64,000 nt of DNA, taken from Escherichia coli (GTDB lineage Bacteria; Pseudomonadota; Gammaproteobacteria; Enterobacterales; Enterobacteriaceae). The stretch lies in NCBI RefSeq assembly GCF_013122565.1, contig NZ_CP053258.1. One strand, written 5' to 3'. The notes beneath the pieces were generated by a model. It made no database searches. It worked only from the letters and a program-made list of their open reading frames with translations, and was not told where the DNA came from. Each line of letters opens with the position of its first letter. The first letter of the stretch is position 1. The translations under genes were made by a program, and so were the position numbers. Below are positions 6,489 through 7,226 of the stretch, one piece after another.

Positions 6489-7226
6489 ATGTCACAGTCT
6501 ACATCCGTGCTTCGTCGTAATGGATTTACTTTTAAACAGTTTTTTGTTGCTCATGATCGCTGTGCGATGAAAGTGGGAACGGATGGCATATTGCTGGGTG
6601 CATGGGCACCGGTGGCTGGGGTAAAACGTTGCCTTGATATCGGCACTGGTAGCGGGTTGCTGGCATTAATGCTGGCGCAGCGAACCGATGACAGCGTGAT
6701 GATTGATGCAGTTGAACTGGAAAGTGAAGCTGCCGCGCAGGCGCAGGAAAATATCAACCAGTCCCCGTGGGCAGAGCGGATTAACGTCCATACGGCGGAT
6801 ATTCAGCAGTGGATCACACAGCAGACAGTACGCTTCGATTTAATCATCAGTAACCCACCTTACTATCAGCAGGGAGTAGAGTGCGCGACACCTCAACGGG
6901 AACAGGCTCGCTATACCACTACGCTTGATCACCCATCGCTGCTGACCTGTGCGGCGGAGTGCATTACCGAAGAGGGATTTTTCTGCGTAGTGCTGCCAGA
7001 GCAGATTGGTAATGGTTTTACTGAACTGGCATTAAGTATGGGCTGGCATTTACGTTTGCGGACGGATGTGGCGGAAAACGAAGCGCGACTGCCGCATCGG
7101 GTGCTGCTGGCATTCTCCCCGCAGGCGGGAGAATGCTTTAGCGATCGCTTAGTCATTCGTGGGCCAGACCAGAACTATTCCGAAGCGTATACGGCGCTGA
7201 CCCAGGCTTTTTATCTGTTTATGTAA
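6489..7226 (+). CDS. trmN6: tRNA1(Val) adenine-N6 methyltransferase
   Basis: ORF track 6369..7226; ATG at 6489 ([19 protein letters not shown]...) gives 245 aa; SAM-binding DIGTGSG and NPPY motifs; 3' end overlaps the nadB 3' end by 16 bp. Confidence 0.9.

Follow-up and report, generated by a model that had tools for sequence, protein, structure and literature searches.

The E. coli genome holds 58 convergent overlaps by the count of Lillo & Krakauer (2007, PMC2174442). The commonest class shares a characteristic 4 nt, which are CTAA, TTAA, CTAG or TTAG (YTAR), and a model of stop-codon mutation fits the convergent overlaps in general. The same work stated that the terminators of convergent overlapping genes must lie in the partner's coding sequence.

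Convergent excludons are a related class, in which a pair is listed when 50% or more of 58 RNA-seq data sets show overlapping transcription (ExcludonFinder, NAR 2025, PMC12288877). Table 1 of that study names csiE-hcaT, mltF-tadA and nadB-yfiC among the 165 convergent excludons of MG1655. The convergent excludons were not validated by p19 dsRNA capture, which recovered few 3′ overlaps (PMC12288877).

Rho-dependent termination of antisense read-through is common: of 1,078 Rho termination regions, 51.5% lie opposite genes, on the antisense strand (Adams et al. 2021, PMC7815308). These regions are rarely found within 50 nt of a stop codon because Rho needs untranslated RNA for loading (PMC7815308).

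A further system involves hairpins that serve two facing transcripts. The model of an overlapping bidirectional terminator reportedly goes back to SEnd-seq work by Ju et al. in 2019. Overlapping bidirectional terminators that are resolved by RNA polymerase collision were described by Wang et al. (2022, bioRxiv 10.1101/2022.10.23.513370).

Here, we compare the trmN/nadB, tadA/mltF and hcaT/csiE overlaps of an E. coli chromosome with these systems. Most probably, they are ordinary, near-neutral tail-to-tail overlaps that arose by turnover of stop codons and spacers, with an obligatory transcript overlap and with ends falling inside the partner chiefly by Rho and trimming. The overlaps are already known, the terminator argument having been published in 2007 and the three pairs listed in the 2025 catalogue.

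Three convergent overlaps in one chromosome segment

The window, meaning the whole analysed stretch of 64,000 nucleotides, is an E. coli-group chromosome segment with identities of 98.3% to K-12 over 20 kb and 92% to E. albertii. It is oriented opposite to K-12 and matches the K-12 range of ~2.655–2.719 Mb. The ORF lists and the sequence give shared 3′ bases of 16 bp for trmN/nadB, 4 bp for tadA/mltF and 9 bp for hcaT/csiE. These are the three convergent overlaps proposed by the initial annotation, and they proved exact to the base in ORF lists, sequence and RefSeq. The RefSeq annotations of E. coli strain 104 and K-12 MG1655 carry the identical three.

The gene trmN (yfiC/trmN6; 6489..7226, plus strand) encodes the tRNA1(Val) m6A37 methyltransferase of 245 aa, and nadB (7211..8833, minus strand) encodes L-aspartate oxidase of 540 aa. 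Both are called as ORFs, by RefSeq and by NCBIfam, TrmN with the equivalog NF047853 (423 bits, profile positions 1–244 of 244) and NadB with NF006567 (1047 bits). In their overlap TTATCTGTTTATGTAA (7211..7226, 16 bp, read from the sequence), both stops are TAA, that of trmN ending at 7226 on the plus strand and that of nadB at 7211 on the minus strand. The K-12 MG1655 coordinates are 2710420..2712042 for nadB and 2712027..2712764 for yfiC.

The second pair joins tadA (21386..21889, plus strand), encoding tRNA adenosine(34) deaminase of 167 aa from the RefSeq start, with mltF (21886..23442, minus strand), encoding membrane-bound lytic murein transglycosylase F of 518 aa. ORF, RefSeq and NCBIfam calls agree for both, and TadA matches NF008113 with 335 bits. 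The overlap TTAA (21886..21889, 4 bp) consists of two TAA stops with TA in common and is one of the four YTAR tetramers. In K-12, mltF is at 2695801..2697357 and tadA at 2697354..2697857.

The third pair is hcaT (51414..52553, plus strand), encoding the 3-phenylpropionate MFS transporter of 379 aa (ORF, RefSeq, NCBIfam TIGR00902 and NF008346), and csiE (52545..53825, minus strand), encoding a stationary-phase-inducible protein of 426 aa from the RefSeq start (ORF, RefSeq, NCBIfam NF008597). CsiE matches NF008597 with 777 bits over profile positions 1–425 of 426. The overlap TCATGCTGA (52545..52553, 9 bp) holds two TGA stops, and the K-12 coordinates are 2665435..2666715 for csiE and 2666707..2667846 for hcaT.

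All six proteins pass the NCBIfam equivalog cut-offs. The matches come to within 1–2 residues of the C-terminus in TrmN, TadA, HcaT and CsiE and within 4 in NadB, while that of MltF ends at residue 481 of 518 and leaves residues 482–518 as a variable tail outside the model. Because the NCBIfam models and RefSeq agree, the gene names and stops of all six are sound.

A 141-bp probe spanning each junction was found in nearly all of the 5,426 complete E. coli genomes sampled (5,418 for trmN/nadB, 5,425 for tadA/mltF and 5,424 for hcaT/csiE). Revised stop positions are unrealistic because the stop codons are unambiguous and conserved. Thus, the three pairs are convergent overlapping protein-coding genes by their shared 3′ bases, by the genes being genuine and by conservation of the overlap, which extends over three genera for trmN/nadB, holds within E. 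coli but varies between genera for tadA/mltF, and was compared within E. coli for hcaT/csiE.

There is next to no chance that the overlaps are annotation or sequencing artefacts arising from wrong stops or frameshifts. Such a reading could point to the assembly of E. coli Ec-U11 (NZ_CM192138.1, ~460–480 of the extracted locus), in which 5 bp (TTATG) are deleted from the 16-bp overlap, the annotation gives trmN as a pseudogene without its C-terminus and nadB is 4 codons shorter. This deletion may be a real mutation that struck both genes at once or an assembly error. However, the stops of the window are read straight from its sequence, the same stops recur in independent genomes and genera, and the family models cover the C-termini.

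Against the 5,426 complete E. coli genomes, the best identity is only 98.3–98.9% for ordinary genes and 99.8% for rpoE-rse, which would place the segment in a lineage just beyond the sampled E. coli, possibly Shigella or a cryptic Escherichia clade. A local anomaly at trmN/nadB, where the best identity is 98.3%, was considered and rejected, the neighbouring segments being at 98.9–99.8% and the window lying ~1–2% from the sampled E. coli.

Numerically, ~0.8 convergent overlaps are expected per 64 kb against the 3 observed (Poisson P ~0.05, a post hoc value). Three overlaps in the window are a mild excess and not a meaningful anomaly.

Histories of the trmN/nadB and tadA/mltF junctions

Relatives were taken from one LepA scan of species-representative genomes with 10-kb flanks, which yielded loci spanning the trmN/nadB and tadA/mltF junctions. 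The stop-to-stop ORFs of these loci were matched to the proteins of the window. The genes trmN and nadB share exactly 16 bp in E. albertii, Citrobacter sp. FP75, Enterobacter sp. Ag1, E. cloacae DSM 26481 and Enterobacter sp. BIGb0383. This junction of −16 is kept in the five other Enterobacteriaceae though the TrmN identity drops to 68%.

In Klebsiella sp. BIGb0407, Rahnella, Photorhabdus and Acerihabitans, trmN and nadB are also convergent, with a spacer of 45–101 bp and no overlap. Clear hairpins are present in three of these four spacers (z −1.8 to −3.1). That of Klebsiella sp. BIGb0407 has a perfect 12-bp stem, and that of Rahnella is a textbook bidirectional terminator, AAAAGUGCG-loop-CGCACUUUUU, with A-tract, hairpin and U-tract in this order. 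The fold of the GC-rich Acerihabitans spacer is no better than that of shuffled sequence. Outside Enterobacterales, a trmN homologue was not detected in the nadB-containing flank of the LepA loci within the 10 kb covered.

The two C-termini differ in how they vary. TrmN has a tail of constant length throughout, ending in ...FYLFM, ...FYLYR or ...FYLNY. The NadB alignment ends at residue 533 in the four spacer-bearing outgroups, where the protein closes with ...ILQP or ...ILTP, whereas in the overlap clade it closes with ...ILSP-(1 to 4 variable residues)-INR. The length differences of this variable linker are 3, 6 and 9 nt.

Within the overlap, TrmN Tyr-Leu-Phe-Met-stop is antisense to NadB Tyr-Ile-Asn-Arg-stop. 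Read in reverse complement, the last base of the trmN Phe codon and the first two bases of the Tyr codon form the nadB stop. As TTY-TAY always reads TAR in antisense, the nadB stop is kept as TAA or TAG under any synonymous state. The trmN/nadB overlap is therefore pinned at 16 bp, since the conserved Phe-Tyr codons of TrmN spell the nadB stop in antisense. Moreover, on the antisense strand of the T/A-rich trmN tail, each of the three frames meets a stop within 19 bp of the trmN end.

In general terms, loss of a stop codon or spacer would let a tolerant C-terminal tail extend to the next in-frame stop, which happens to fall on the neighbour's antisense strand. For trmN/nadB, the common ancestor of Escherichia, Citrobacter and Enterobacter probably lost the spacer, which bears a hairpin in three of the four sampled outgroups. 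In the simplest reading, spacer and hairpin went in a single event and NadB then read through a short remnant. The NadB tail would thereby have gained ~4–7 residues and a new stop antisense to the conserved Phe-Tyr codons of TrmN.

The tadA/mltF junction has a different history. Across eight taxa it ranges from +80 to −113 bp, with +80 in Arsenophonus, +40 and +8 in two Citrobacter, −4 in the window, −8 in Enterobacter sp. BIGb0383, −11 in Acerihabitans, −110 in Klebsiella sp. BIGb0407 and −113 in E. cloacae. The TadA and MltF tails are of low complexity and unalignable between genera. With both tails variable, the junction appears to move freely from genus to genus, and this drift argues against selection for a particular overlap.

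Two of these taxa have unusually long frame overlaps for a convergent pair, of 113 bp in E. cloacae DSM 26481 (locus 21157–21269) and 110 bp in Klebsiella sp. BIGb0407 (locus 20590–20699). There, the conserved C-terminal helix of TadA (...LSDFFRMRR...) is encoded opposite the MltF tail.

A competing reading, which we consider rather improbable, takes the overlaps as selected regulatory devices, that is, convergent excludons in which a partner is repressed by polymerase collision or by RNase III cleavage of the paired 3′ ends. Such devices would couple, for example, NAD synthesis by nadB to tRNA modification by trmN, or the stationary-phase csiE to hcaT. The exact trmN/nadB overlap across three genera with in-frame indels only would fit, as would the presence of all three pairs in the MG1655 excludome and the higher synteny of excludon pairs as a class (PMC12288877). 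However, the conservation of −16 is explained by the conserved Phe-Tyr codons, the tadA/mltF junction is labile and the partners have no evident functional link. The exact −16 and the in-frame indels could also reflect selection on the overlap beyond the coding constraint.

The excludon listing itself weighs little on this question. No pairs of this genome stretch other than these three are catalogued as excludons, and overlapping transcripts are on record for all three. Their transcripts overlap because the coding sequences overlap and both are transcribed. Hence, the listing is near-automatic for overlapping coding sequences and is not independent evidence of regulation.

As to dsRNA, no p19 clusters lie at the three junctions among the matches listed, the method capturing 3′ overlaps poorly. 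Evidence of reciprocal expression or of RNase III action was not found for these three junctions. Antisense interference between the partners is thus only a potential.

The 5′ half of csiE (window ~53140–53800) has RNase III-derived dsRNA clusters from published p19 pull-downs and minus-strand start sites inside the gene. The cluster is given in older K-12 coordinates, 2663459–2664122, and was converted to the window by assuming an offset of ~1,974 bp between the K-12 versions. It indicates internal antisense transcription on the hcaT strand, which is distinct from the 3′ overlap.

A variant with little to recommend it, less credible still than the general one, is that the spacer loss forced the nadB and trmN transcripts to overlap and that this overlap is now selected. 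NadR-controlled transcription of nadB would then switch trmN and the m6A37 of tRNA(Val), or the reverse. Our preferred reading of turnover under coding constraint is kept below.

Transcript ends at overlapping and gapped junctions

The window has 10 convergent pairs, three overlapping and seven gapped. Each of the seven gapped junctions has a hairpin between the genes, whose stem is long and GC-rich in most cases. Long GC stems are found at grcA/eamB and shoB/yfhL, the former followed by a U run as in a canonical terminator; GC stems are found also at yfiF/ung and glnB/hmpA, and REP-like palindromes at yfiE/srmB, glyA/yphH and yphB/yphA. The best local folds are of −17.4 to −25.9 kcal/mol at the gapped junctions versus −15.8, −18.0 and −19.5 kcal/mol at the overlapping ones.

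The spacers of yfiE/srmB (4815–5022) and glyA/yphH (35008–35204) are ~200 bp each and carry the REP-like palindromes GGCCTACA...TGTAGGCCTGATAAGCG. The yfiE/srmB spacer is of 208 bp in K-12 too, and those of E. coli strain 104 are only 32 bp at yfiE/srmB and 62 bp at glyA/yphH. Since the spacer lengths differ between strains, REP elements appear polymorphic in presence or absence at convergent junctions.

At the three overlaps, a consensus scan of the six stops found no hairpin followed by a U-tract, either at a stop or just past it. Intrinsic terminators there were accordingly rejected, the hit counts being equal to the shuffled-sequence background and no hit being usefully placed. The folds of the 125 nt past each stop have z of +0.3 to −2.05 against shuffled sequence. 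The hairpins at these junctions sit inside the partner's coding sequence and none has a U tract after it. The initial premise that overlapping ends have no room for intergenic terminators is upheld by this absence at the three overlaps and by the hairpins at all seven gapped junctions.

Moderately stable hairpins lie 10–50 nt past the trmN, tadA and hcaT stops. The strongest one downstream of nadB lies ~75–100 nt past its stop (window ~7110–7136, inside trmN). It was rejected as a conserved 3′-end element, as it is degraded in E. albertii and Enterobacter, where its remnant tracks Ser-Pro and Gly-Glu codons.

Published 3′ ends and Rho regions come from Adams et al. (2021, PMC7815308), whose Term-seq and Rho tables use K-12 coordinates, and were mapped onto the window. 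The csiE mRNA has a Term-seq 3′ end at window 52498 on the minus strand (K-12 2666762, plus strand; supplementary file 1). It lies 47 nt past the stop and inside hcaT and was classed 'primary, antisense' (PMC7815308). No U tract precedes it, and it is absent from the published Rho regions as looked up by the gene names hcaT and csiE.

The tadA read-through has a Rho termination region at window 22179 on the plus strand (K-12 2697064, minus strand; Adams et al. 2021, supplementary file 2). It is bicyclomycin-sensitive with a Rho score of 9.6 and p = 2e-18 (PMC7815308) and maps to the antisense strand of mltF, 290 nt beyond the tadA stop. In the published data, looked up by gene name for hcaT and csiE, tadA is the only one of the six genes for which a rise of read-through under bicyclomycin, the mark of Rho-dependent termination, is on record. 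For nadB and trmN, a search by name and coordinate found neither a 3′ end nor a Rho region in the tables of Adams et al. 2021. The csiE 3′ end in hcaT and the tadA Rho region in mltF thus lend support to the earlier suggestion that the transcripts terminate inside the opposing gene.

A weaker Rho region (score 3.2) lies inside mltF on its own strand at window 22138, ~250 nt before the stop (Adams et al. 2021). It is 41 nt from the antisense region of tadA, and these opposed calls could mark a site at which convergent polymerases meet.

Transcription into the partner gene also occurs at pairs whose coding sequences do not overlap. Each of yfiE and srmB has a Rho termination region 370–480 nt past its stop and inside the other gene (PMC7815308), at window 5291 and 4652, despite the 208-bp spacer. 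The genes ung, yfiF, hmp, yphH and yphB have comparable antisense calls (PMC7815308). As Rho loads on untranslated RNA, the ends fall hundreds of nucleotides into the partner.

C-rich and G-poor stretches follow the stops, as is typical of any antisense coding strand. The C/G composition was consequently rejected as a proxy for Rho loading because it is not discriminating.

Mechanistically, where no terminator fits between the genes, each mRNA would run on into the coding strand of its partner and be ended there mainly by Rho-dependent termination or 3′ trimming. Collision of RNA polymerases may add to termination. The outcome would be an obligatory and probably low-level 3′ overlap of the two transcripts. 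Rho termination was demonstrated for tadA, the csiE 3′ end would agree with it, and we infer it for the other four transcripts.

The opposite weighting, in which head-on collision of RNA polymerases at a pause-inducing hairpin is the main route instead of Rho, is unlikely, though less so than the selected devices. It would account for a csiE 3′ end that is discrete, has no U tract and is not listed as a Rho region under the gene names, and it could use the moderately stable hairpins near the trmN, tadA and hcaT stops. However, these hairpins are not significantly more stable than shuffled sequence (z −0.5 to −2), and E. albertii and Enterobacter do not conserve the one downstream of nadB. The tadA read-through is strongly sensitive to bicyclomycin. 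The genes are also weakly expressed, so collisions should be rare. Rho-dependent termination with trimming is hence the reading carried into the comparison below.

Comparison with described systems

Standard E. coli annotation already includes the overlaps, whose significance is little beyond bookkeeping. What is new is the evolutionary account of trmN/nadB, in which a spacer and its hairpin would have been lost, NadB would have gained a tail and its stop is fixed by Phe-Tyr codons. The tadA/mltF pair, not conserved between genera, serves as the contrast. New also is the contrast within the window, where the gapped pairs keep an intergenic hairpin, mostly a strong one, and the overlapping pairs have none.

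With the convergent excludons, the likeness is that all three pairs are named in the MG1655 catalogue. The difference is that excludons are defined by mutually exclusive expression through interference or RNase III, whereas here overlapping coding sequences are by themselves enough to make the transcripts overlap. Antisense coupling, if it held for nadB or for tadA, an essential gene, would extend the excludon literature modestly.

With the collision-type bidirectional terminators, the pairs share the setting of convergent E. coli genes without canonical intrinsic terminators, and hairpins embedded in coding sequence lie near the junctions. Those elements, however, lie between genes with paired 3′ ends flanking the hairpin, whereas here the csiE end is the only one mapped and tadA is Rho-sensitive. 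A terminator of this type is possible for csiE/hcaT or trmN/nadB.

The tadA region in mltF belongs to the Rho termination of antisense read-through described by Adams et al. (2021, PMC7815308). This membership is established for one of the six transcripts here, that of tadA.

The closest system is that of the overlaps counted by Lillo & Krakauer, which are alike in the shared 3′ bases, the TTAA tetramer and the putative origin by stop mutation. The three pairs have no essential difference from them. To that class, the present analysis adds the history of trmN/nadB and a stop codon set antisense to Phe-Tyr.
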